Translations under genes and position numbers: made by a program
The notes under the pieces: model-generated
The model's input: the letters and a program-made list of their open reading frames with translations, nothing else
Database searches by the model: none
Told to the model about the DNA's origin: nothing
Assembly (NCBI GenBank): GCA_050298695.1
Contig: JBNKUQ010000002.1
Coordinates: 3,136-67,135 of the forward strand
Direction of reading: 5' to 3'
Origin: Cellvibrionaceae bacterium
Lineage (GTDB): Bacteria; Pseudomonadota; Gammaproteobacteria; Pseudomonadales; Cellvibrionaceae
DNA length: 64,000 nucleotides
Shown: one piece after another, positions 35,245-46,762 of the stretch
Layout of the letters: each line of letters opens with the position of its first letter
How positions within the stretch are numbered: the stretch's first letter is position 1

Positions 35245-36996
35245 TTAAAAGTTGCTGAGCCAAAGTGCTTGATATGGCGCCATAACATATTTGTCTCCGT
35301 GATTGTCTAGTTGGGCCCCGCTGATTAGGTCATGCCAGTGGTCAGTAGCTATAAGGTTAATACTGGACAATAAAACGGTTTGGGCTGTGTCGCTGATGTT
35401 GTGCAAACAAAAAATACTTTGACGTCTATCCATGCTTTGTCGCCAAAAAGCAAAGATTTGGTTGTTAAAATGAAGTGTAAACTGTGTGGCATTAGGGTGG
35501 AATGCTGGTTGTTGTTTACGTATGTGAATTAAATTTTTTAGCTGTTTAAGAACTTGATGATGAGTGGTGTTTTCATTGATGAGTTGTTTCGTCAGTTCCT
35601 CAGCTTGCCATTGATGTCGATTAATCGCACGGTTATAGCCCTTATCGTCAACGCGCTTTAAGTCATTTTCGGTCGCAAGAAGGCTGTGAATATAAAACGC
35701 GGGGATGCCTTCTAGGGCCAACATAATGGCATGTGCACAAACGAAGCGAGCGATCTGCCACTGATCAGGACCTTTGGTCGTTCCTTTTAGTGCATCAAAT
35801 AATGAAATATTGATTTCGTAGGGTTTATTTATGCCATTATCAAGTGCGCGCCAAGAAATTTTTCCACCAAACATTTCCATGGTTTCAGTCAGGTTTTGGA
35901 TTTCTTTATCACTTAACAGCCCCTCCGCAGGTCTTAGCCCTATACCATCGTGGGAGGCTATGAAATTAAAATAGGTCGTACCGTTTTGAGCCGGCGGCAT
36001 ACTCATTAGCCAGTTTTTTAGATAATGACAGTCTCCGGTTGTTAGTGTGTTGACAAGTAGTGGAGGTAATGAAAAATTATAAATGCAGTGTGCCTCATTG
36101 CCATTGCCAAAATAGGACAAGTTTTCTCTATTGGGAATGTTCGTTTCGGTAATGATAATGGAATCTTTTTGTGCGTGTTCTATGAGTGTCCTTAATAAGC
36201 GCACAATCTCATGGGTTTGTGGCAGGTTGATACAGCTTGTGCCCAGTTCTTTCCATAAAAATGCCACAGCATCAAACCGAAAAATACGTATACCGTGATT
36301 GAGATAAAAACGAATGATGCCGACAATTGCGCATAGCACGTCGGGATTTTTAAAATCAAAATCGACTTGGTCGTGACTGAATGTGCACCATACGTACTTA
36401 GGGTCATCTTGCTTGTTCGCTTTGATTACGTTGGTTTTACGAAACAGCGGTGTGGTTCGTGGCCGTACAACGGCTGAAGTATCATCGTCTGGTGAACCCG
36501 TGACAAAGAAAAACTTTCCTGGTTCTTCATCGCGAATAAACTGCTGAAACCATTCATTGTCTTTTGAGCAGTGATTAATAACCAGATCCGACATGAGCCG
36601 GAAATCACGACTAATAATGTCGATGTCATCCCATGAGCCTAACTCTGTATTGACAGAACGATAGTTGATAACAGAAAAGCCATCATCTGCGCAGTAAGGA
36701 AAAAAAGGCAGAATATGAATGGTATTGATATATTCGTGTAGATACTGATGTAAAAAATGATGGAGCGTTTTTAAAGGCGCTTCATTGTCATTGACGACAG
36801 AATTTCCGTAAGTGATAACCGCAATGTCGTGTTCAGTCCAGTGGTTGTGTTGGTGCAAGGGTGTAAAGCAAAATTCGTCCAGACGCATAATTTTGATGAG
36901 TTTTTGCGCCAGCGCTTTATTGTCTTCATCGGTATAAATTAAACCAAGGTGATTCTCTATGCGCTCTGCTAATTGTTCGAGTGTAACATTCTGCAT
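35245..36996 (-). CDS. GH13_18 sucrose-phosphorylase-family enzyme; by context, probably a glucosylglycerate phosphorylase
   Basis: The GH13 conserved regions are [29 protein letters not shown] and FIASHDGIG. It is 583 aa and the last gene of the gpgS/gpgP operon. Confidence 0.7.
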
Positions 36997-36999
36997 GGC

Positions 37000-38229
37000 T
37001 TATCCGCTTTTACTAAATTCTTCGTTATCTTCATGCACAGCATTGCGCAAACGCTCGTAAATATCCGGTATCGCGCTGACGACTCGGCTCCAGCTGGGTA
37101 TAAAAGGGTTTTCCATAGGTTTGTCGATAAATTCTTGTCCAGCTTTCATGACATTCTTAGCAAACATTTCAACGGCTAATTCTTCTTTATGGACATCAAT
37201 GTTAAGGCCATTGATGATGGCATCGTTTTTATAGGTTTCAACAAAGTCGAGTGCTATTCGAAAGTAAGTGGCTTTTATTGTGCGGAATGTTTCCGGGGAA
37301 AAAACGACACCTTGCGTTGCCAATTTTCGAAATAGTGCCTTGCTGATATCAATGGACATTTTTGATAAACCAGCAGTGGCATCATCGAAAGATAAATCTT
37401 GATGTTTGTGGTCATAGGTGGCTGCAATATCAACCTGACACAAGCGATTATTGGCATAGTTTCGGTGGACTTCTGAGAGTACACCTATTTCTAGTCCCCA
37501 ATCACTTGGAATGCGAATATCAGAAATAACATCTCGCCGGAATGAAAATTCTCCAGCCAGTGAATATCGATAGCTGTCCATATAATCCAAGTAGGGTGAG
37601 TCACCTACGATACGTTTAAGTGCCCGCAATAGTGGTGTAACGAGTAAGCGGCAGACGCGGCCATTCATGTTTTGATCGGCAATGCGGGCATAGTAGCCTT
37701 TACAAAATTCATAGTTAAAATTAGGGTTGGCAACGGGGTAGATGAGTCGCGCAAGCATGCGGCGATCATAGGTCAAAATATCACAATCATGTAAAGCAAT
37801 CGATTCGCTTTTCCCTGAAGAGAAAATGTAGCCCAGACAATACCAAACATTTCTACCTTTGCCGAGTTCTTGCGGCGCGAGCCCGAGGGCTTGTAACTCC
37901 TTGTCGATAGCTTGCAAACGTGGACCATCATTCCACAAAATACGGTGGTGTTGGGGTAGTTCTCCAAAAAAGTCTAAGGCATAGCGGTACTGTGTTTCAT
38001 CGGCTCGGTCCAGCCCAATGACAATTTCATTAAGGTAAGGTACTTTTTTTAAATGCTCAACAATATTGAGTAGGGCATCGCCTTCTAATTCTGAAAAAAG
38101 AGAGGGTAGCAGCAGCGACATGGGTCTGATTTTTGAAAAGCAGATGAGTTCGTATTCTAGTTCTTCTAAGCTGCGGTTGGATAGATCGTGTAATGTCGTA
38201 ATAATACCGTTTTGGTAAAAATCACCCAT
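37000..38229 (-). CDS. gpgS: Glucosyl-3-phosphoglycerate synthase-like glycosyltransferase
   Basis: The N-terminus is FYQNGIITTLHDL. The blocks LWNDGPRLQAID...GKGRNVWYCLGY...ALHDCDILTYDRRMLARLIYPV...CKGYYARI...NGRVCRLLVTPLLRAL match my memory of cyanobacterial/proteobacterial GpgS. Mannosyl specificity cannot be excluded. Confidence 0.65.
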   Translation of the reverse strand: MGDFYQNGIITTLHDLSNRSLEELEYELICFSKIRPMSLLLPSLFSELEGDALLNIVEHLKKVPYLNEIVIGLDRADETQYRYALDFFGELPQHHRILWNDGPRLQAIDKELQALGLAPQELGKGRNVWYCLGYIFSSGKSESIALHDCDILTYDRRMLARLIYPVANPNFNYEFCKGYYARIADQNMNGRVCRLLVTPLLRALKRIVGDSPYLDYMDSYRYSLAGEFSFRRDVISDIRIPSDWGLEIGVLSEVHRNYANNRLCQVDIAATYDHKHQDLSFDDATAGLSKMSIDISKALFRKLATQGVVFSPETFRTIKATYFRIALDFVETYKNDAIINGLNIDVHKEELAVEMFAKNVMKAGQEFIDKPMENPFIPSWSRVVSAIPDIYERLRNAVHEDNEEFSKSG

Positions 38230-38247
38230 AGTTTCTCCTATTTTTTA

Positions 38248-39090
38248 TCATTGTTGTGTTTCTGCCTGTTTGAAAAAAAGTTGGTGAATGGCTTCGCTCC
38301 AGCCACTGGGTCCTGTTTTTTTTGTGATGATCTTGCAAGGGTGGTCAAATATGGGGGCGTCATTGATTGGCGATTTAACGACAACTGCTATGTCAGCTGC
38401 TTTCAGCATATCTATGTCATTTTTACCATCGCCCAGAGCCACGACTTTAACATTTTCGCCATAGTGTTTTTCGTACTGTTGTGCTAGCCAAGACGTGGCG
38501 CTACCTTTATTGGTGTGTCCCATCAAATGAATAAAACGCCCGCCTTCGGTAAAATGAATATGCTGTTTATATAAATGCCAGTAAAACTGTTTTCGCTGTT
38601 CTTCATTGCCGAGCCATTGCAGTGGTTCGGTATAATCTCGCCGCATTGAACGCTCTGCCTGTTCTTTTGATAATCCTGTCATTTGTATAATGTCATCAAC
38701 TGTAGACTGATGATAGCTACGATAGTACTGATTAAATTCGGCAGGTAATTTTTTTAATGCGGCAATAAGTTGCTCTCTGGATCTTCCAAGATTCACTTTC
38801 CAGTAGTGGCCACCTTCTTCGCTGATATCGAGTTTATGTGAAAAATAATTTTTGGGAACAAAAATGCCGGACCCATTTTCTGTAACAAATGGATGCTGAT
38901 TATTGAGTTGCTTGCGCAAACCATTTATTTCTCCGGCGGTCTTACTGCTATTGATGATAATGGGGGTATTGTATTGCTTGAGTTTGTTAAGTGCGTTAAT
39001 GGCAGGAATAAAACTGTAAGTGTGGTGATCTAGCAGTGTGCCATCTAGGTCTGTCACAATAATCCAACGGGTTTGTTTATCGGTGTTCAT
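38248..39090 (-). CDS. gpgP: HAD-IIB glucosyl/mannosyl-3-phosphoglycerate phosphatase (YedP/MpgP family)
   Basis: WIIVTDLDGTLLDHH, INSSKT and ALGDGKNDIDML are present. ATG 39090 (MNTDKQT) is preferred to 39138. It overlaps the upstream kinase gene by 14 nt. Confidence 0.7.
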   Translation of the reverse strand: MNTDKQTRWIIVTDLDGTLLDHHTYSFIPAINALNKLKQYNTPIIINSSKTAGEINGLRKQLNNQHPFVTENGSGIFVPKNYFSHKLDISEEGGHYWKVNLGRSREQLIAALKKLPAEFNQYYRSYHQSTVDDIIQMTGLSKEQAERSMRRDYTEPLQWLGNEEQRKQFYWHLYKQHIHFTEGGRFIHLMGHTNKGSATSWLAQQYEKHYGENVKVVALGDGKNDIDMLKAADIAVVVKSPINDAPIFDHPCKIITKKTGPSGWSEAIHQLFFKQAETQQ

Positions 39091-39994
39091 TATCCAACCT
39101 ATTGATAATGTTATGTTCTGGGCTGAGTTCGAAAACAATATCGGCTTTTTGTGGTAGAAAGCATAACATATGCTCAGTTAAACGTTGGTAATGTTCTATA
39201 AATCGTCGCAGTTCATTGGAATTCATTATTTTTTTATTTTGTAGTGATTGTTCTGTTTTTTTTTTGCGCAGTTTCTCTTCTTGTTTTTCTCGCCAAAGGT
39301 AGACGCAGTCAAAACTCGGCGCCTTAAGCATAACTAAGCGATCTAATTGTGCAAACAAAGGCATGTACTCTTTTTCTATATACTTATTTATTTTACGTCG
39401 CCATATTCCTTTGGGATCCTCTTCTTTTTCCAGCGTATTTATTGCGGTAATTAAGGCTGACTCCTTTTGAGAACATACGCCAATGCACCAACCTTCCAAA
39501 ATAATAATATCTGCGGGTCCATTTAAGTAATCCCATTGAGATGTTGCGCTGCGATCATCTATTGATTTATCAAAGCGTGGGATGGGAATGGATGCTTGAG
39601 TATTTGTTAAGTTTGTTAGTGTTTTTTGTAGCAGTCTTGTGTCATGTGTTCCTGGAACCCCTCGTGTTTTAAATAAAGGATGTACTTTGTTTGCTAAGTC
39701 TTGACGCTCTTGTCGTGTTAAATAAAAGTCATCAATCGACAGGTTGGCCACATTTTTCTGATATGTGTGTGTCAGTAGCTTTGTTAGCAATGCAGCCAGG
39801 GTGGATTTTCCACTACCTTGGCAGCCATTAATACCGATGAGTAAGCATGACGAGGATTGATTGGCGAGTTCAGCTAATTCTTCGCTAAGTGGTAAATAGT
39901 AGGCCTCTGCTGTCTCGCTAAACTGGCTAGGGAGCTGCTCTTCCTGGTAGAAGTGCTCTAGAAGTTCCTTTTCACATAGGTTCAACTTGTGCAT
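39077..39994 (-). CDS. P-loop D-glycerate 3-kinase (plant/cyanobacterial GLYK type)
   Basis: IGINGCQGSGKSTLAALL...LSIDDFYLTRQERQDLA...FKTRGVPGTHD parallels the GLYK signature (GCGKTT...LSIDDFYLT...RGNAGSHD). ATG 39994 is preferred to 40018. Confidence 0.65.
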   Translation of the reverse strand: MHKLNLCEKELLEHFYQEEQLPSQFSETAEAYYLPLSEELAELANQSSSCLLIGINGCQGSGKSTLAALLTKLLTHTYQKNVANLSIDDFYLTRQERQDLANKVHPLFKTRGVPGTHDTRLLQKTLTNLTNTQASIPIPRFDKSIDDRSATSQWDYLNGPADIIILEGWCIGVCSQKESALITAINTLEKEEDPKGIWRRKINKYIEKEYMPLFAQLDRLVMLKAPSFDCVYLWREKQEEKLRKKKTEQSLQNKKIMNSNELRRFIEHYQRLTEHMLCFLPQKADIVFELSPEHNIINRLDNEHR

Positions 39995-40233
39995 TAGGCA
40001 TTCTTCCAAAATGATCAAGATAATAGAGTTAATTGACTATAAAAGGGTAGATTTGCTGCAAGGTTCATGCAAGAAACGACAAATGTCTCTACATCCATTA
40101 CACTCACGCCTTTTTCTATGTCCGATAATCTTACTCACGTGTGATGATTATTACTCCATTTATTAAGCCCCTCGTCTTGGGTAAGGTGGATCGGGTGCGG
40201 ATAAATAGATGATCATGTCTAAAGAGTAGTCGT

Positions 40234-41826
40234 GTGGAAAAATCGAATAACAGCAGTGCAAAGATAACAAAACACAAAGGTTTGTTGAGATCGGGCTTAA
40301 TTGTAAGCGCTATGACTATGCTTTCCCGAGTACTTGGTTTGGCCCGTGATGTCGTATTTGCGCACCTTATTGGTGCGCAACCGGGTGCTGATGCTTTTTT
40401 TGTGGCATTTAAAATCCCTAATTTTTTGCGCCGTTTGTTTGCTGAGGGGGCATTTGCGCAAGCCTTTGTCCCTGTTTTATCCGAGTATCGCGAAAAGGGA
40501 AGCCGTGAAGCGGTACAAGGTTTAATTGACCGAGTTTGTGGATGCTTGGGAATTACCTTGTTGGGACTAACCTTAGTTGTAATTGTTGGTGCGCCGGTAG
40601 TGACGACTATCTTCGCGCCAGGATTCTGGAATGATCCTTACAAGTTTGACCTTGCTCAACAGATGCTGCGCATTACCTTTCCCTATTTGTTATTGATTTC
40701 CTTAACGGGTTTTGCCGGCGCCATATTGAATAGTTACGATCATTTTGCTGCGCCTGCTTTTACCCCTGTCTTACTGAATATATGCCTAATAAGCGCCGCC
40801 ATCTGGGTAAGTCCTTATTTTGATCCACCCGTCATGGCCTTAGCTTGGGGGGTATTAGCGGCTGGTATGGTTCAGTTAGGGTTTCAGATTCCTTTTTTGT
40901 GGAAAATGCGTTTGATGCCTCGACCTAAGGTTGATTTTAAGGACAGTGGTGTTCGGCGGGTATTACTGTTGATGGCTCCCGCTATTTTTGGTGTGTCGGT
41001 ATCGCAAATCAATTTATTATTGGACACGGTACTGGCGTCTTTTCTACCTACGGGCAGCATTGCTTGGCTTTACTATTCTGACCGTCTTGTTGAGTTACCG
41101 TTGGGGACGATTGCCATTGCTATTGGTACTGTCATTTTGCCAAGTTTGTCGAGGCAACACGTAGCAGAAGATAGTAGTAAATTTAGTGCAACGATGGATT
41201 GGGCTTTGCGTTGGATTCTTCTTATTGCTTTTCCTGCGACAGTGGCTTTGTTTATTTTGTCTCAGCCCATATTAAGTACTTTGTTTGAGTATGGAAAAAC
41301 AACCACTACAGATATTGCGATGTCTTCATTAAGTCTAAAGGCCTACTCTGTTGGATTACTCGCGTTTATGTTAATTAAAGTGTTAGCACCGGGGTATTTT
41401 TCGCGACAAGATACCAAAACGCCGGTGAAAATAGGCATTATTGCCATGGGGATGAATATGCTGTTCAACTTGTTGTTTGTTATTCCCTTCCATTTTCTGT
41501 GGCAGCTAGGTCATGTTGGCTTGGCGATAGCGACCTCTTTATCCGCTTTTGTGAATGCGGGTTTGCTTTATCGCGGCTTACGCAAGAGAAACGTTTATCA
41601 ACCTGCTTATGGTTGGTGTTATTACATCTTGCGATTATTAGTGGCTAATACGGTAATGGCGATTACCTTGTTTTTGAGCTTACAGTACGTTGCTGATTGG
41701 TCTACTTTTCTAGCTTTGGAGCGCATTGTCTATGTGGGTGTTATTTGTATGACGGGTTTGTTGGTCTATGTTGTAACACTTTTTGTTGTGGGGTTTAGAT
41801 TGGATTCTATTCGCTACAAAGCTTAG
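40234..41826 (+). CDS. murJ: Lipid II flippase MurJ (MviN)
   Basis: GLLRSGLIVSAMTMLSRVLGLARDVVFAHLIGA...FFVAFKIPNFLRRLFAEGAF is the canonical MurJ N-terminus. The protein has about 14 TM helices and is 530 aa. It has a GTG start, and the exact start is uncertain. Confidence 0.9.
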   Translation: MEKSNNSSAKITKHKGLLRSGLIVSAMTMLSRVLGLARDVVFAHLIGAQPGADAFFVAFKIPNFLRRLFAEGAFAQAFVPVLSEYREKGSREAVQGLIDRVCGCLGITLLGLTLVVIVGAPVVTTIFAPGFWNDPYKFDLAQQMLRITFPYLLLISLTGFAGAILNSYDHFAAPAFTPVLLNICLISAAIWVSPYFDPPVMALAWGVLAAGMVQLGFQIPFLWKMRLMPRPKVDFKDSGVRRVLLLMAPAIFGVSVSQINLLLDTVLASFLPTGSIAWLYYSDRLVELPLGTIAIAIGTVILPSLSRQHVAEDSSKFSATMDWALRWILLIAFPATVALFILSQPILSTLFEYGKTTTTDIAMSSLSLKAYSVGLLAFMLIKVLAPGYFSRQDTKTPVKIGIIAMGMNMLFNLLFVIPFHFLWQLGHVGLAIATSLSAFVNAGLLYRGLRKRNVYQPAYGWCYYILRLLVANTVMAITLFLSLQYVADWSTFLALERIVYVGVICMTGLLVYVVTLFVVGFRLDSIRYKA

Positions 41827-41941
41827 GGGTTGTTGACGCGCAGAACATGGGCAGGTATATGCTCCTGCGAGAAGCAAAAATACCAGTAAATCGAGGCCAT
41901 TGTACTCACGACATCCGGCCGTTTGGTGCGTCAGGATTTTT

Positions 41942-43102
41942 TCAGGGATAACTAGATAGTATCTCCCCATCCCAGTTGATGCCATAAGTTGTCGCATCTC
42001 GTATCGAGCTTTGATTGCGTATTGCTAATAATAATATTTCGGCGATGCTTAAATATTGAGAAAAAAATAAAAAGGGATCTTTTTTATCGAAAATAATATC
42101 GCGAGCATGCCGGTAGTCGCGTAACCATTCTAATGTTTGTCGTTTGATAATGGCTTGAGGTAAGGCATTAAGTATCATGGCCGCAGCAGACATGGCTGCT
42201 TTGCTTTCAGTATCGGTAGTGATAGTTTTTAGTCCAAGAATGGCATCGCCTATATTCTGTTTATTAAATAAATGTATGCCACTTGTTGCTCTAGGGTTGC
42301 ATTCGATTAGTGATATACCGTTGTCATTTTTCATAAAATCAAAGCTGATTTGGCCGCTAAATTCATGCTTTTTAACAAAGTTTCTGACAAACTTTTCTAG
42401 AGTGCTATTTGTTTCTTTAGAAAAATAAATGCTTGCAGAATTCTTAATCCGGTATTTAGGTCGATAACTACTATGCGCATACAAATTTCCTTTGTGGGCA
42501 ATACTATAAGTGCATATCTCGTTCCCATGTATTTTATCTTGAATTAGATAGTGACTGTTTTTTCCACCATTTTGTATTAATTTTATAATATTTTTAGCCT
42601 TAGGATTGAGTAAAACGCCAGTGCCAAACCGTGAATATTCACGTTTAATGATTTTGTTTTCCCAATTTTCATGAAGTCTATCTATAAGCTTTTTGTCATC
42701 AATTAATTCCGTGTCAGGAAATTCAATCCCACAATTTTGAGCGAGATGGAATATTTGATATTTACTGTGAGCTTTTGTTAAAAAATCTATGTCACTGGAA
42801 ATAATGTCGCAGTATCTTCCAAGTGTTTTTTTAAGATAAGCAATATAAAAAATTTCTTCACAAGTAGGTAGAAGGTAATCAATATTTTCTTTTTCTATAA
42901 TTTTAAGCAAATCCTTTTTAAATTGTTTTACGTTTTTTCTAGGTGCGGTGATTAGATAGTGATTTTTGATTAAGCGAGAGTAACGTGATAGAGGAAGATG
43001 TAAACAGTCTACAGTAGAAACTTGATGCCCATGGTGTGTGAGGTTTCTTGTCAACTCCAAGGCGGCAGGGGAACGAGAGCCGGTAATAAGAAAGTGTGCC
43101 AT
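41942..43102 (-). CDS. ATP-grasp-domain ligase, substrate unknown
   Basis: It has a Rossmann-like N-domain (HFLITGSRSPAALELTRNLTHHGHQV) and an ATP-grasp core ending in ISLIECNPRATSG. It is 386 aa and visibly AT-rich. Confidence 0.65.
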   Translation of the reverse strand: MAHFLITGSRSPAALELTRNLTHHGHQVSTVDCLHLPLSRYSRLIKNHYLITAPRKNVKQFKKDLLKIIEKENIDYLLPTCEEIFYIAYLKKTLGRYCDIISSDIDFLTKAHSKYQIFHLAQNCGIEFPDTELIDDKKLIDRLHENWENKIIKREYSRFGTGVLLNPKAKNIIKLIQNGGKNSHYLIQDKIHGNEICTYSIAHKGNLYAHSSYRPKYRIKNSASIYFSKETNSTLEKFVRNFVKKHEFSGQISFDFMKNDNGISLIECNPRATSGIHLFNKQNIGDAILGLKTITTDTESKAAMSAAAMILNALPQAIIKRQTLEWLRDYRHARDIIFDKKDPFLFFSQYLSIAEILLLAIRNQSSIRDATTYGINWDGEILSSYP

Positions 43103-43112
43103 TTCTTAGGTT

Positions 43113-44255
43113 TTATAATTGCAGTGAAATTAGTTTGTTGGCAACTAAAGGACTTATTTTTTCAAGAAGGCGCCATGGTATTCTTCTTTTAAAACGTTGG
43201 TTAGTTAAATCAATAAAATTGTACTCCATGTATTGTTTTGCTCCTCGCGTTCGTTTGAACTCAGCGGCTCCACTACTACAGTGAACCAATAAATTTTTCT
43301 GATATGCGACTTGATAAGGAATAAAACAAGCCATTCGATAAAGCCCCTCATTTGCTGGTCGTTGAGTATCAAAGCCTAAAATAGGGGTGGTGACCATTCC
43401 ATTGCGAATAAAATATCCACAGGCACTACGCATATTACCGTTAATTTTTTTAAATCCTGTGTAATGGAGGGTGTGTTGTCTATGGGTTTCTTTGTAAAAA
43501 TACTTGGTAAATTGAGGGTTGAGACTGCTCCATTTTTCAAGATAGAGCTGATCGTACAATCTGTTAATGCTTATGAGATCGCTCTCTGAGATATCCTCAT
43601 GATCGAGTGGCTCATATCTTGTTGTTTTTAGCATTCGAATGTCATTCTTTAATGAACGTTTTTGGCTGGCGATAATAGGATCTTGTAGATAAACAGAACG
43701 CCCTAGTATCGGGGTTAGTCCTAATTTTAATAACTGCCCGTAAAGCTCTTGAGAATTAAATGCTGATACTGAACGAAAATAAACGCCATGTTTTGGAAAA
43801 TGTTTTTTTACTTCGCTGATTACAGCTTTTAATTCTGCTTCTTCATAATTTAAGTGTAGGTTTGTTGATAGCATCCAATTATTGATTGTAGCGACTTTGT
43901 TAATGTCACAATGCTTAAAGAGGGTTCCTAATAGCTTGATTAAAAGCGATAAGATGTAAGCAATAAAAGGGGTTCTCAGCTCTTTCAGCTCATAGAGTAA
44001 ATAGGATACATATTGGCCATAGGGGGAAGCTACATAAGAATTAGCGTATTCGCGATTATTGACAGTTAGAGGCAATACTTTGTCGCCGACAATAATGACA
44101 TATAGCTCTGTTTTGATGTTGCGTATAAACTTTGTACAGCCTTTTTTTAGCATAGGTGATAAGAACCTTCTGGCGTAATCACCATCTGAGTTATTTGGCC
44201 AAGGTATCATGTCGAGCTCTTTGGCTGCGTAAATCTGAGCAGTAATAGTTTTCAT
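43113..44255 (-). CDS. GNAT-fold (Acetyltransf_6/FemAB-like) protein, function unknown
   Basis: The C-terminal block YDQLYLEKWSSLNPQFT...ILGFDTQRPANEGLYRMACF...SSGAAEFKRTRGAKQYMEY resembles BioF2-like/FemAB-like acyl(aminoacyl)transferase domains as I remember them. It is 10 nt upstream of the ATP-grasp gene. Confidence 0.45.
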   Translation of the reverse strand: MKTITAQIYAAKELDMIPWPNNSDGDYARRFLSPMLKKGCTKFIRNIKTELYVIIVGDKVLPLTVNNREYANSYVASPYGQYVSYLLYELKELRTPFIAYILSLLIKLLGTLFKHCDINKVATINNWMLSTNLHLNYEEAELKAVISEVKKHFPKHGVYFRSVSAFNSQELYGQLLKLGLTPILGRSVYLQDPIIASQKRSLKNDIRMLKTTRYEPLDHEDISESDLISINRLYDQLYLEKWSSLNPQFTKYFYKETHRQHTLHYTGFKKINGNMRSACGYFIRNGMVTTPILGFDTQRPANEGLYRMACFIPYQVAYQKNLLVHCSSGAAEFKRTRGAKQYMEYNFIDLTNQRFKRRIPWRLLEKISPLVANKLISLQL

Positions 44256-44388
44256 AGGGTGGTAATACCAAGGTATGTCTCTGGCAATGTTTTATTTCTG
44301 ATTTTGTGTTCTATAATAAATATTAATTTGTTATGGGCAATTCATGTCTGTATAAAAAAATAATAGGTAATAGGGCTGAGCCATATAA

Positions 44389-45660
44389 ATGCGAATGCTG
44401 GTTGTCGAAGATAGTATCACCTTAGGACATGTTCTTAAAAAATATGTTAAGGACATGAATCACAAGGTGATTACTGTTCGCAGCGGTGAGCAGGCGCTAC
44501 AGTATATCGAAACCATGCCCGTCGATATGGTATTGATGGATATCGAAATGCCTGGCTTAGATGGTTTGGAAACAACCCGATTGATACGTGAAAGTATGGA
44601 TCACTGGTTGCCCATTATCTTTGTATCTGGCAAAGGTGAGGAGGATGATTTTAAAAAAGGTATCGAGGCGGGTGGCGATGATTATTTGATCAAGCCAATC
44701 AGCCGAGTTATTTTACAAGCCAAAATCAAAGCGATGGAACGTATTCTTTCTATGCAAAAAGAGCTTAACTCTCTTTACGAAGAATTGGAGTTCTTACATC
44801 GTTACGATAGCCTAACCCAGATCTATAATCGAGCTGCTGTTAAAGAACGTGCAGATGCCATGTGGAAACAAGTGGGTCGCCAAGGTCGTTACATTGCGGT
44901 ATTGATGATCGATGTCGATCACTTTAAACAATACAATGATCATTATGGCCATCCTGCCGGGGATAGTTGCTTACAGCAAATAAGCCAAGCCTTTCATAAG
45001 ACATTTCAACGCTCTGAAGATTTGTATGGCCGCTATGGTGGGGAAGAGTTTATCGTTGTGCTTTCCAATACTGACCTCAAAAGTGTGCAAATAGCCAGTG
45101 AAAAACTGAAATCTGAGATTGAATCTTTGGCAATACCTCACGCAATGTCCAAGACCAGTGATTATGTGACCATTAGTGTTGGTGGTTCAGTTATTCCTCA
45201 TAGTAATGATGCAAATTTAGAGCAAACAATTAAACATGCCGATTCAGCACTTTATAAGGCAAAAAGCCAGGGACGAAATAGAGTTGTTATTGAAGAATTT
45301 CTCTTTAGGGCGCATAAAAATATCATCATTCTCAATGCTACTGATACAGTACTCCGCATATTTAGGGATATGCTCAAGGATCGTTGTCGCATACTAACAG
45401 CGGATAATAGTGAAGATTGCTTTGAAATCGTCGAGGCTATTAATGCTGAAATGGTTGTAGTCAATAGCTATAGTACTCAACTTGGAGATGCTGAAAGTTT
45501 TCAAAAGCTCCATAAAAAGGTAGAGGAGCTTGAGATACCGCTGATTTACCTTGCCACTGAAGACAGCCCTCCAATAGAGAAGGGAAGCTATATCGAGTCC
45601 GTAGATGTGAATGATGACGCTGCTCTGCAGAGCGTGGTCAATCGTCATTTTCCTGCATAG
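44389..45660 (+). CDS. Response-regulator diguanylate cyclase (REC-GGDEF with an extra C-terminal pseudo-receiver-like domain)
   Basis: The REC domain is MLVVEDS...VDMVLMDIEMPGLDG...DDYLIKP. The GGDEF domain has an active GGEEF motif and an I-site at canonical spacing (RSEDLYGRYGGEEF). The ~120-aa tail (NIIILNATD...EMVVVNSY) has Asn where a phospho-acceptor Asp would be. Confidence 0.85.
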   Translation: MRMLVVEDSITLGHVLKKYVKDMNHKVITVRSGEQALQYIETMPVDMVLMDIEMPGLDGLETTRLIRESMDHWLPIIFVSGKGEEDDFKKGIEAGGDDYLIKPISRVILQAKIKAMERILSMQKELNSLYEELEFLHRYDSLTQIYNRAAVKERADAMWKQVGRQGRYIAVLMIDVDHFKQYNDHYGHPAGDSCLQQISQAFHKTFQRSEDLYGRYGGEEFIVVLSNTDLKSVQIASEKLKSEIESLAIPHAMSKTSDYVTISVGGSVIPHSNDANLEQTIKHADSALYKAKSQGRNRVVIEEFLFRAHKNIIILNATDTVLRIFRDMLKDRCRILTADNSEDCFEIVEAINAEMVVVNSYSTQLGDAESFQKLHKKVEELEIPLIYLATEDSPPIEKGSYIESVDVNDDAALQSVVNRHFPA

Positions 45661-45748: not shown

Positions 45749-46762
45749 TTGCCGTTATACTTGCCAGCTTTTGTGGCTACAGTTTTGACGACTTTCAAAC
45801 GCGAATTTATCCGTGGGTTGCACAATTTACGACCAGAACACCATGGTAATGTGGTGACTGTGGGTTCGTTTGATGGGGTGCATCTGGGTCACCAAGCTAT
45901 TTTAAGGCAAGTTTTAGCGCAATCAGAGCGTTTGACCTTACCATCTGCTGCGATGATATTTGAGCCCCAACCTCATGAGTTTTTTTCTGGAGATAAGGCA
46001 CCACCACGGTTAATGCGTCTGGGAGAAAAGGTTCAAGCACTGTTTGACCACGGTATTCACCGGGTTTTTTGTTTGCCCTTTAATCATGCCTTGAGCGAAC
46101 TTTCATCATTTGTTTTTATTGAGAAAGTATTGGTACAAGGTTTGGGAACTCGCTATTTGGTTGTCGGGGATGATTTTCGTTTTGGCGTTGGGCGAACAGG
46201 TGATTACGAGCAATTGTTGGAAGCTGGCGAACGCCATCATTTTGCGGTGACCGATACTCAGTCATTTTTAGTTGGCGGAGAACGGGTCAGTAGCACCCGA
46301 ATTCGTGAGTTGCTTCAGCAAAATCGGTTTGAAGCCGCGGCTGATTTATTGGGGCGTCCTTATACTATTAGTGGCAAAGTGGTGAGGGGTAATCAGCTCG
46401 GTAGAAACTTGGGCGTTCCGACAGCAAATGTCCATTTACATCGTTACCGTTCACCCTTAGCGGGTGTTTTTGCGGTGGTTGCCACTCTAGCATCCGGTGA
46501 GCGTTTGCAGGGTGTTGCGAATGTGGGAGTGCGTCCTACGGTAACGGCCAGCGACGGTAATACCGTTGTCAAGCCCATCTTGGAAGTTCATGTCTTCGAT
46601 TGGGTAGGAGACTTATATGGGCAGACCATTGCGGTTGAATTTAAATACAAACTTCGGGATGAGCAGCGATTTGCCGGCTTAGATGAACTTTCACAGCAAA
46701 TAGGCAAAGATGTACAGCAGGCGCGCGATTTTTTTAAGCGGAACAATAACTGCGAGACATAA
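45749..46762 (+). CDS. ribF: Bifunctional riboflavin kinase / FAD synthetase
   Basis: FIRGLHNLRPEHHGNVVTVGSFDGVHLGHQAIL and a C-terminal riboflavin kinase domain are present. The true start is probably GTG 45773 or TTG 45785 rather than 45749. Confidence 0.9.
   Translation: MPLYLPAFVATVLTTFKREFIRGLHNLRPEHHGNVVTVGSFDGVHLGHQAILRQVLAQSERLTLPSAAMIFEPQPHEFFSGDKAPPRLMRLGEKVQALFDHGIHRVFCLPFNHALSELSSFVFIEKVLVQGLGTRYLVVGDDFRFGVGRTGDYEQLLEAGERHHFAVTDTQSFLVGGERVSSTRIRELLQQNRFEAAADLLGRPYTISGKVVRGNQLGRNLGVPTANVHLHRYRSPLAGVFAVVATLASGERLQGVANVGVRPTVTASDGNTVVKPILEVHVFDWVGDLYGQTIAVEFKYKLRDEQRFAGLDELSQQIGKDVQQARDFFKRNNNCET

Follow-up and report, generated by a model that had tools for sequence, protein, structure and literature searches.

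The stretch of DNA analyzed here, a 64-kb window on a contig of a Cellvibrionaceae bacterium, carries three genes between murJ and ribF (Table 1). Two of them lie close together on the minus strand and encode an ATP-grasp carboxylate-amine ligase of 386 amino acids (aa) and a 380-aa protein that is predicted to be a tandem-GNAT transferase; the third, a REC-GGDEF diguanylate cyclase gene, is transcribed divergently from them. A preliminary description of the locus had given the same three open reading frames (ORFs), the 10-nt gap within the pair, and the 133-nt spacer to the cyclase gene, and its coordinates agree exactly with the ORF list. From the 10-nt spacing we infer that the two minus-strand genes are co-transcribed. 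Judged by homology, this pair is the conserved core of a widespread operon, minus four partner genes. The reading that we find probable, if by no means strongly so, is that it forms a self-contained, acquired two-enzyme unit that makes amide bonds in the synthesis of a small molecule.

The 386-aa protein matches NCBIfam NF005315 (PRK06849, named "hypothetical protein") with 354.4 bits (E 7.7e-106), residues 4–382 aligning with positions 7–387 of the 389-position model. This score lies below the curated cut-off of 406 bits, and the family member from a Bacillus operon described below scores 533 bits; on these scores the window protein is a divergent PRK06849 relative. Its Pfam matches are all subthreshold (ATP-grasp_3, 21.2 vs 23.2 bits; ATPgrasp_Ter, 19.9 vs 29.1; RimK, 17.2 vs 21), and sequence and profile searches of the PDB returned marginal, generic ATP-grasp matches only (AMdnB, E 2e-4). 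An AlphaFold2 (AF2) model with a mean predicted local distance difference test (pLDDT) of 94.9 predicts the three-domain ATP-grasp fold, and Foldseek matches it to 2pn1, PurD, PurK, PylC, RizA, and biotin carboxylases (E 1e-14 to 1e-16, TM-score 0.5–0.63). The preliminary description had called the protein an ATP-grasp ligase and pointed to the string IECNPRATSG; the PRK06849 match and the fold bear out the first, and the string is present at residue 266.

In the 34 other aligned family members 30 residues are invariant, and the window protein has kept every one of them (30/30). Among the residues invariant across the 35 members, window copy included, are K153, Q188, D255, and E267-x-N269-P-R271, which by analogy with other ATP-grasp enzymes would supply the ATP-binding lysine, the hinge Q/E, the acidic Mg ligands, the E-x-N element, and the arginine used in nucleotide and Mg binding. 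In neighbor-joining (NJ) trees the protein nests within the clade of proteobacterial operon members in 200 of 200 bootstraps.

Two relatives deserve separate mention. One of the closest relatives, P0126 (locus L002, 8001–9140, from hydrothermal vent metagenome contig UOFI01000139; 43% identical), is labeled "Glycerate kinase," which is almost certainly a misannotation, since it is a PRK06849-type ATP-grasp protein inside the six-gene operon described below. In Legionella shakespearei (LNYW01000069; locus L007, 946–9131) a same-family ATP-grasp gene, 34% identical, occurs without a GNAT gene; its putative operon also encodes a cytochrome P450, two unknown proteins, a PEMT-like methyltransferase, a fatty-acid desaturase, a PGA_cap protein, and a haem-oxygenase-like protein. 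Because this copy sits in a different putative operon, the ATP-grasp family appears to serve more than one pathway.

By sequence, the 380-aa protein has no match in Pfam (even at E 1), in NCBIfam, or in the PDB, nor in the PDB by profile; in particular, it matches none of PF02388 (FemAB), PF09924, PF13480, and PF04339. Its AF2 model (pLDDT 94.0) predicts a pair of GNAT domains in tandem, separated by a cleft. The top Foldseek matches of this model are Sba18 and Sbb17, aminoacyl-tRNA-dependent peptide synthases (E 2e-8, TM-score normalized to the query [TMq] 0.51–0.53), and further matches include the C-terminal domain of MprF/aminoacyl-phosphatidylglycerol synthases, FemX, and FemA (E 2e-8 to 4e-6 overall, probability 1.00). 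TMq is 0.49–0.53 for Sbb17, Sba18, MprF, and FemA, as against 0.33–0.39 for the tandem GNATs that depend on coenzyme A (CoA) among the matches, namely clavulanate Orf14 (2wpw), GLYAT, and VipF. At the level of the family, 17 of 36 members match PF13480 (weakly, best E 4e-7) and three match PF04339. The earlier designation of the protein as GNAT/FemAB-like thus proves apt on the fold and on the PF13480 matches of its relatives; it is not derivable from the protein's own sequence by comparison with Pfam, NCBIfam, or the PDB.

The C-terminal GNAT domain carries a motif, F333-K334-x-x-R337-G338, that is invariant or nearly so across the family and intact in the window copy. In FemX, Lys305 is preceded by Phe304. 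An aromatic-Lys catalytic pattern is described for FemX (Lys305) and DhpH-C (Phe328-Lys329; PMC12945691), and the motif of the 380-aa family resembles it. At the place that, judged by inspection only, seems to correspond to the Q/RxxGxG/A of CoA-binding GNATs, the family consensus reads PQxxGLYR (ANEGLYR in the window copy). The window protein is the most divergent family member seen and the sole member of its 50%-identity cluster. Nine of its residues differ at positions conserved in all other architectures: E88Y, Y134H (which falls in the motif NNWLLSTNLY), S185G, Y242W, Y295F, L309A, H352N, L353Q, and P374K. Such divergence would fit relaxed constraint, or else an adaptation to a new acceptor once the enzymes supplying the original acceptor had been lost.

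A genome scan with the alignment of the 380-aa family found relatives in at least 560 species; 80 loci were annotated with hidden Markov models (HMMs), 70 of them with informative flanks. An exhaustive HMMER search with the same family returned 1,468 clusters at 50% identity (958 at E ≤ 1e-30). At 64 of the 70 informative loci, an ATP-grasp gene lies within 9 kb of the GNAT relative. Three independent natural fusions were found, P0448 (751 aa), P0505 (783 aa), and P0486 (660 aa), all confirmed by BLASTP and by PRK06849 matches, in which the PRK06849 ATP-grasp part is N-terminal and the double GNAT C-terminal. The P0448 fusion (locus L095, 1235–3490) lies inside the usual operon and is followed by genes for a short-chain dehydrogenase/reductase (SDR), a metallo-beta-lactamase-fold (MBL) protein, and an adenylating enzyme. 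Linkage and fusions together strongly suggest that the two genes travel as a module, as the preliminary description had proposed to check. The pair can also stand alone, since pair-only loci occur in Ktedonobacteraceae, where the neighbors are unrelated (cobalamin genes, Nramp/DtxR, serine hydroxymethyltransferase, an amidohydrolase, an acyl-CoA dehydrogenase) and have no common theme.

In most genomes of this set of at least 560 species, which includes the Bacillus cereus group, the pair lies within a conserved operon of five or six genes. Its partners there are a ketoacyl synthase III (KAS III), an OleD-like reductase (the SDR), a lactonase-like MBL protein, and an adenylating enzyme resembling F390 synthetase. 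The order is KAS III, ATP-grasp, SDR, MBL, a protein of about 440 aa, and GNAT in Firmicutes; KAS III, SDR, MBL, a protein of about 430 aa, ATP-grasp, and GNAT, sometimes with a Rieske gene, in Gammaproteobacteria; and SDR, MBL, GNAT, KAS III, and ATP-grasp in Chloroflexi. In the Bacillus operon, the KAS III scores 640 bits against NCBIfam PRK07204 and the ~440-aa protein 714 bits against TIGR02304 ("F390 synthetase-related" adenylate-forming enzyme); the SDR matches OleD 2-alkyl-3-oxoalkanoate reductase with 243 bits (cut-off, 580 bits), and the MBL protein matches N-acyl-homoserine lactone lactonases weakly, with 93 bits. The partners are thus acyl-chain and small-molecule enzymes of Ole/beta-lactone-like character, and they point to small-molecule biosynthesis rather than modification of the envelope or of an exopolymer. 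A Rieske [2Fe-2S] gene directly follows the GNAT gene in gammaproteobacterial operons (L009, 10242–11225; L093, 4801–5778); neither the Firmicute and Chloroflexi layouts nor the window has this gene. Literature searches found no paper describing the operon, in keeping with the earlier statement that no characterized pathway could be named; the literature covered did not include the possibly relevant 2009 amidoligase paper of Iyer and Aravind, and a 2010 paper by Aravind does not mention the operon neighborhood.

Several known systems resemble parts of this picture. The double-GNAT architecture of the 380-aa protein is that of the Fem group (FemX, FemA, and MurM; Orf11, Sba18, and Sbb17 of streptothricin-type antibiotics; VlmA; PacB; DhpH-C and DhpK), to which its best Foldseek matches belong (9wqy, 9wqx, 4ii9, 1ne9, 1lrz, 6snr). 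Identity is only 9%–13%, HMMER detects no similarity to the PDB chains, PF02388 does not match, and, unlike the Fem group, the 380-aa family has an ATP-grasp ligase as its regular partner, in some cases within one polypeptide. The C-terminal aminoacyl-phosphatidylglycerol synthase domain of MprF (DUF2156; 9goe, 5vrv, 4v36, 4v34/35) shares the double-GNAT fold (E 4e-8 to 4e-6, TMq 0.41–0.51) and aminoacylates a nonprotein acceptor from aminoacyl-tRNA; the 380-aa protein differs in lacking a flippase or membrane domain and in a context of acyl-chain enzymes, not of lipid resistance.

Clavulanate biosynthesis unites the same two enzyme classes in one small-molecule pathway, Orf17 being an ATP-grasp N-glycyl-clavaminate synthetase and Orf14 (2WPW) a tandem GNAT (PMC8788787). 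Orf14 binds acetyl-CoA and superposes worse (TMq 0.38, E 1.2e-7); the window genes are unrelated in sequence to those of clavulanate biosynthesis, and beta-lactam genes are missing here. Homologs of the window pair are the ATP-grasp and terminal 380-aa genes of the PRK06849/PRK07204/TIGR02304 operon itself (Bacillus cereus group, Paenibacillus, Anaerolineales, vent gammaproteobacteria), from which the window differs in that the four partners are absent and the order is reversed (GNAT, then ATP-grasp). The Ole and beta-lactone pathways (OleABCD; lipstatin LstA-F) are analogs of the full operon's four accessory genes only, none of which is in the window. They have in common with it a KAS III- or thiolase-type condensing enzyme, an OleD-like 3-oxo reductase, and an adenylate-forming enzyme; they differ in that the operon's SDR scores below the OleD cut-off and that its adenylating enzyme is F390/PaaK-like, not OleC-like. 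Lipstatin carries an N-acylated amino acid.

At 35.8% G+C, the pair forms the lowest 2,314-bp stretch of the window (mean 42.0%, standard deviation 2.4%); only 0.6% of sliding windows are as low, and every one of these overlaps the pair. Among the 48 ORFs of the list, the ATP-grasp gene has the lowest G+C content (34.7%, z -2.2) and the 380-aa gene the third lowest (36.9%, z -1.6), whereas the cyclase gene is ordinary (41.3%, z -0.4). The preliminary description had spoken of a low-GC insert of three genes. Its two hand counts, 21/60 at 42601–42660 and 29/60 in ribF at 46201–46260, are exact, and its wording fits the pair; the cyclase gene is unremarkable in composition, so that the three do not behave as a single insert.

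The same description had taken as its reference a Pseudomonas-type backbone, in which ribF-ileS-lspA would directly follow murJ. Relatives of the window MurJ at 74%–86% identity are labeled Cellvibrionaceae, Candidatus Endobugula, or Eionea, and on account of these labels the backbone is one of marine Cellvibrionales/Cellvibrionaceae, not Pseudomonas. The site was compared in three Cellvibrionaceae relatives, L090, L091, and L092 (MurJ 78%–82% identical). Downstream of murJ, L090 has a chromate transporter, an extracytoplasmic function (ECF) sigma factor, cytochrome b/YceI, and a desaturase–acyl carrier protein–ketosynthase set; L091 has an SDR, a TetR regulator, holA, lptE, and leuS, with the ribF-ileS block not adjacent; and L092 has chrA, cytochrome b561, and yceI, followed by ribF-ileS-lspA-fkpB-ispH, so that three genes intervene even in the sole relative with ribF-ileS-lspA after murJ. 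Neither the pair nor the cyclase gene is found downstream of murJ in any of the three, and since the cargo differs in each, the position is a variable spot, apparently a hot spot at which Cellvibrionaceae carry differing cargo. With the lowest G+C content of the window, and with other genes in its place in the three relatives, the pair looks horizontally acquired, as had been supposed. The nesting of its ATP-grasp protein in the proteobacterial operon clade fits this view. No match above 46% identity for the ATP-grasp protein, or above 40% for the 380-aa protein, was found among 5.8 billion protein clusters.

Upstream of murJ, on the minus strand at 35245–40018, lies a cluster of compatible-solute type. 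It encodes an alpha-amylase-family protein (583 aa), a GpgS-like glucosyl-3-phosphoglycerate synthase (NF040724, 375 bits, below cut-off), an MPGP-family phosphatase (TIGR01486, 236 bits), and a P-loop kinase resembling PRK/uridine kinase. Because the same four glucosylglycerate-type genes precede murJ in L090 and L091 (L092 lacks them), we assign the cluster to the backbone and not to the insert.

Table 1. Features of the segment between murJ and ribF (positions in the 64-kb window)
Feature	Positions	Strand	Length	Remarks
murJ	40234–41826	+	530 aa	Pfam MurJ, 470 bits; TIGR01695, 466 bits
Convergent spacer, murJ stop to ATP-grasp stop	41827–41941		115 nt	50% G+C; one junction of the variable segment
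ATP-grasp carboxylate-amine ligase	41942–43102	-	386 aa	By score, divergent member of NCBIfam PRK06849
Spacer between ATP-grasp gene and 380-aa gene	43103–43112	-	10 nt	
Predicted double-GNAT (Fem/MprF-like) transferase	43113–44255	-	380 aa	Unnamed family; upstream gene of putative two-gene operon
Divergent intergenic region, 380-aa gene to GGDEF gene	44256–44388		133 nt	30% G+C (AT-rich); presumed promoters
REC-GGDEF response-regulator diguanylate cyclase	44389–45660	+	423 aa	
ribF	45749–46762	+	337 aa	Confirmed by Pfam/NCBIfam

Starting from the folds, motifs, family membership, linkage, fusions, and operon context, and from the composition of the pair, the variability of the site, and the pair's absence from it in relatives, we propose the following for the window pair. 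The ATP-grasp enzyme would activate a carboxylate as an acyl-phosphate and couple it to an amine, and the double GNAT would then add another acyl group to the same scaffold, most likely an aminoacyl group from aminoacyl-tRNA, by analogy with FemX, MprF, Orf11, and Sbb17. The product would be a small amide or peptide-like metabolite, the substrate being a small molecule rather than a polymer. The ligase core of an orphan operon would thus have been dropped into the variable site downstream of murJ, and the divergence of the GNAT at otherwise conserved positions may reflect a changed acceptor. A bolder extension, which we put forward as tentative and would not call likely, is that the PRK06849-type ATP-grasp and the 380-aa double GNAT constitute an unrecognized, widespread ligase pair (in at least 560 species and some 1,000–1,500 clusters at 50% identity, and sometimes fused) for ATP- and aminoacyl-tRNA-dependent amide formation, a signature of orphan acyl-amino-acid or beta-lactone-like natural products, including products of the Bacillus cereus group, with the window copy a stand-alone offshoot that makes a different metabolite.

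Several observations weigh against the proposed acquired, aminoacyl-tRNA-dependent unit. No characterized member was found in either family. The Foldseek E-values of the CoA-dependent tandem GNATs (2wpw, 1e-7; GLYAT, 1e-6) are only about ten times worse than those of the tRNA-dependent enzymes, and the resemblance of F333-K334 to FemX Lys305 and DhpH-C Phe328-Lys329 is one of motif pattern. Six of 39 otherwise invariant residues are changed in the window GNAT (33/39 kept), and such changes could mean decay, not new function. The GNAT joins the proteobacterial operon clade of its ATP-grasp partner in only five of 200 NJ bootstraps, so the histories of the two are incongruent, through either long-branch effects and accelerated evolution or separate origins. 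Searches with tblastn at E 1e-2, using queries from three operons, found no KAS III, SDR, MBL, or adenylating enzyme in the window; these four genes could lie elsewhere in the genome. As to acquisition, the window contains no tRNA, the segment has no integrase ORF or other mobility gene, and around it only short repeats at chance level, with no flanking direct repeats, were found.

The closeness of the Foldseek E-values leaves room for a different donor: the GNAT might use acyl-CoA, the pair making an N-acylated amino-acid or dipeptide-type product, perhaps a compatible solute, after the model of clavulanate Orf17 and Orf14 or of Ngg. Ngg is a fused GNAT/ATP-grasp enzyme that makes the osmolyte N-acetylglutaminylglutamine amide (NAGGN), and the natural ATP-grasp–GNAT fusions described above parallel it. 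Tandem-GNAT CoA enzymes are indeed among the Foldseek matches (2wpw, E 1.2e-7; GLYAT 7pk0; VipF), and the cluster of GpgS, phosphatase, and kinase genes at 35245–40018 would suit an osmolyte pathway; in the clavulanate precedent, Orf14 binds acetyl-CoA and the Orf17 ATP-grasp enzyme makes N-glycyl-clavaminic acid (PMC8788787). We nevertheless regard acyl-CoA as an unlikely donor, given the poorer global superposition of the CoA enzymes, the PQxxGLYR consensus at what by inspection seems to be the place of Q/RxxGxG/A, and the invariant Fem-like F-K motif. The idea of a NAGGN-type osmolyte, suggested by the adjacent glucosylglycerate genes, is kept only as part of this alternative, since those genes are conserved in relatives without the pair and their linkage to it is not functional; nor is an asnO-like amidotransferase adjacent. 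Decay of the GNAT would point instead to a nonfunctional or decaying remnant of the six-gene operon after loss of four genes. The missing partners, the nine changes at residues conserved in every other architecture, the GNAT's long and unplaced NJ branch, and the lack of a clear Shine-Dalgarno sequence upstream of either gene would all fit such a remnant, to which we give rather little credence: both ORFs run their full length, uninterrupted by a frameshift or stop codon, and have kept the 10-nt spacing; the ATP-grasp retains its 30 invariant residues and the GNAT its FK-x-x-RG motif and 33 of 39; both models reach a pLDDT of about 94; pair-only loci recur in another phylum; and conservative replacements of one aromatic residue by another (Y to W, Y to F) resemble retuning more than decay.

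The preliminary description had instead favored a module for the modification of the envelope or an exopolymer under cyclic di-GMP control. In such a scheme, amino acids would be attached in Fem fashion to lipid II, to a lipid, or to an exopolysaccharide, and the pair would be functionally tied to MurJ and the cyclase. PF13480, matched by 17 of the 36 family members, also includes CelD/BcsL-type proteins of exopolysaccharide loci. The fold relatives FemX, FemA, and MprF act on peptidoglycan precursors and membrane lipids, murJ adjoins, and the pair and the cyclase gene have the 133-nt divergent promoter region in common, through which co-regulation is possible. The neighborhoods of related pairs speak against such a role: a GGDEF gene lies within the flanks of the pair at only two of the 80 loci, adjacent in just one, so that no regular co-travel with a GGDEF gene is seen; no murJ or peptidoglycan gene lies beside the pair in the neighborhoods examined; and the conserved partners are acyl-chain enzymes. 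Neither protein has an annotated membrane- or secretion-related domain (Pfam, NCBIfam), the cyclase gene has ordinary composition, unlike the pair, and the site downstream of murJ holds unrelated cargo in relatives. On the neighborhood and composition data, we treat cyclase and murJ as neighbors by position only, and we consider an envelope role highly improbable. A reading of the pair as a defense system was dropped, as PADLOC has no model for it.

ATP-grasp ligases and Fem-like GNAT transferases are both known enzyme classes, and they co-occur in the clavulanate pathway (PMC8788787). The two families of this pair lack a characterized member, no family model covers the GNAT, the operon is widespread and apparently unstudied, and the window copy is both reduced and divergent. 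If the proposal is correct, a very common gene pair would form the nucleus of an as yet unassigned biosynthetic operon employing two different nonribosomal routes to amide bonds, and would lengthen the short list of natural-product enzymes that depend on tRNA. Since the operon occurs in well-studied bacteria (the Bacillus cereus group), its product should be experimentally accessible. In the window, the pair would be an acquired accessory module, for which an annotation in cell-wall or cyclic di-GMP terms, taken from its neighbors, is unwarranted; it is a lead for natural-product enzymology, not for cell-envelope biology.

Transcription signals around the pair were scanned by consensus. No terminator-like site was found between the two genes, nor a terminator in the 115-nt spacer between murJ and the ATP-grasp gene. 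Two sigma-70-like matches lie on the minus strand at 44389–44360 and 44340–44313, around the divergent region; the scanned region contains 11 such matches, not above the shuffled expectation of 14.2 ± 4.1. With counts at or below the shuffled expectation, these scans are uninformative.

The cyclase had been described as a REC-GGDEF protein, and Pfam recovers both domains: REC at residues 4–113 (Response_reg, 95 bits) and GGDEF at 139–298 (173 bits). It has the REC phospho-acceptor Asp (D51), an RxxD I-site (RSED208), and an intact GG[DE]EF motif (GGEEF217), as in proteins of the PleD/WspR type. A C-terminal extension of about 120 aa follows (residues ~303–423, 45295–45660), the last 113 aa of which have no Pfam match even at E 10. 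From its alternating pattern of hydrophobic residues, the extension may be a second receiver-like domain in degenerate form. At the other end of the segment, a 95-aa minus-strand ORF (41710–41997) runs across the 3' end of the ATP-grasp gene and, antisense, across that of murJ; the public record annotates this ORF as a gene (L001, 12259–12546), and it is probably spurious.

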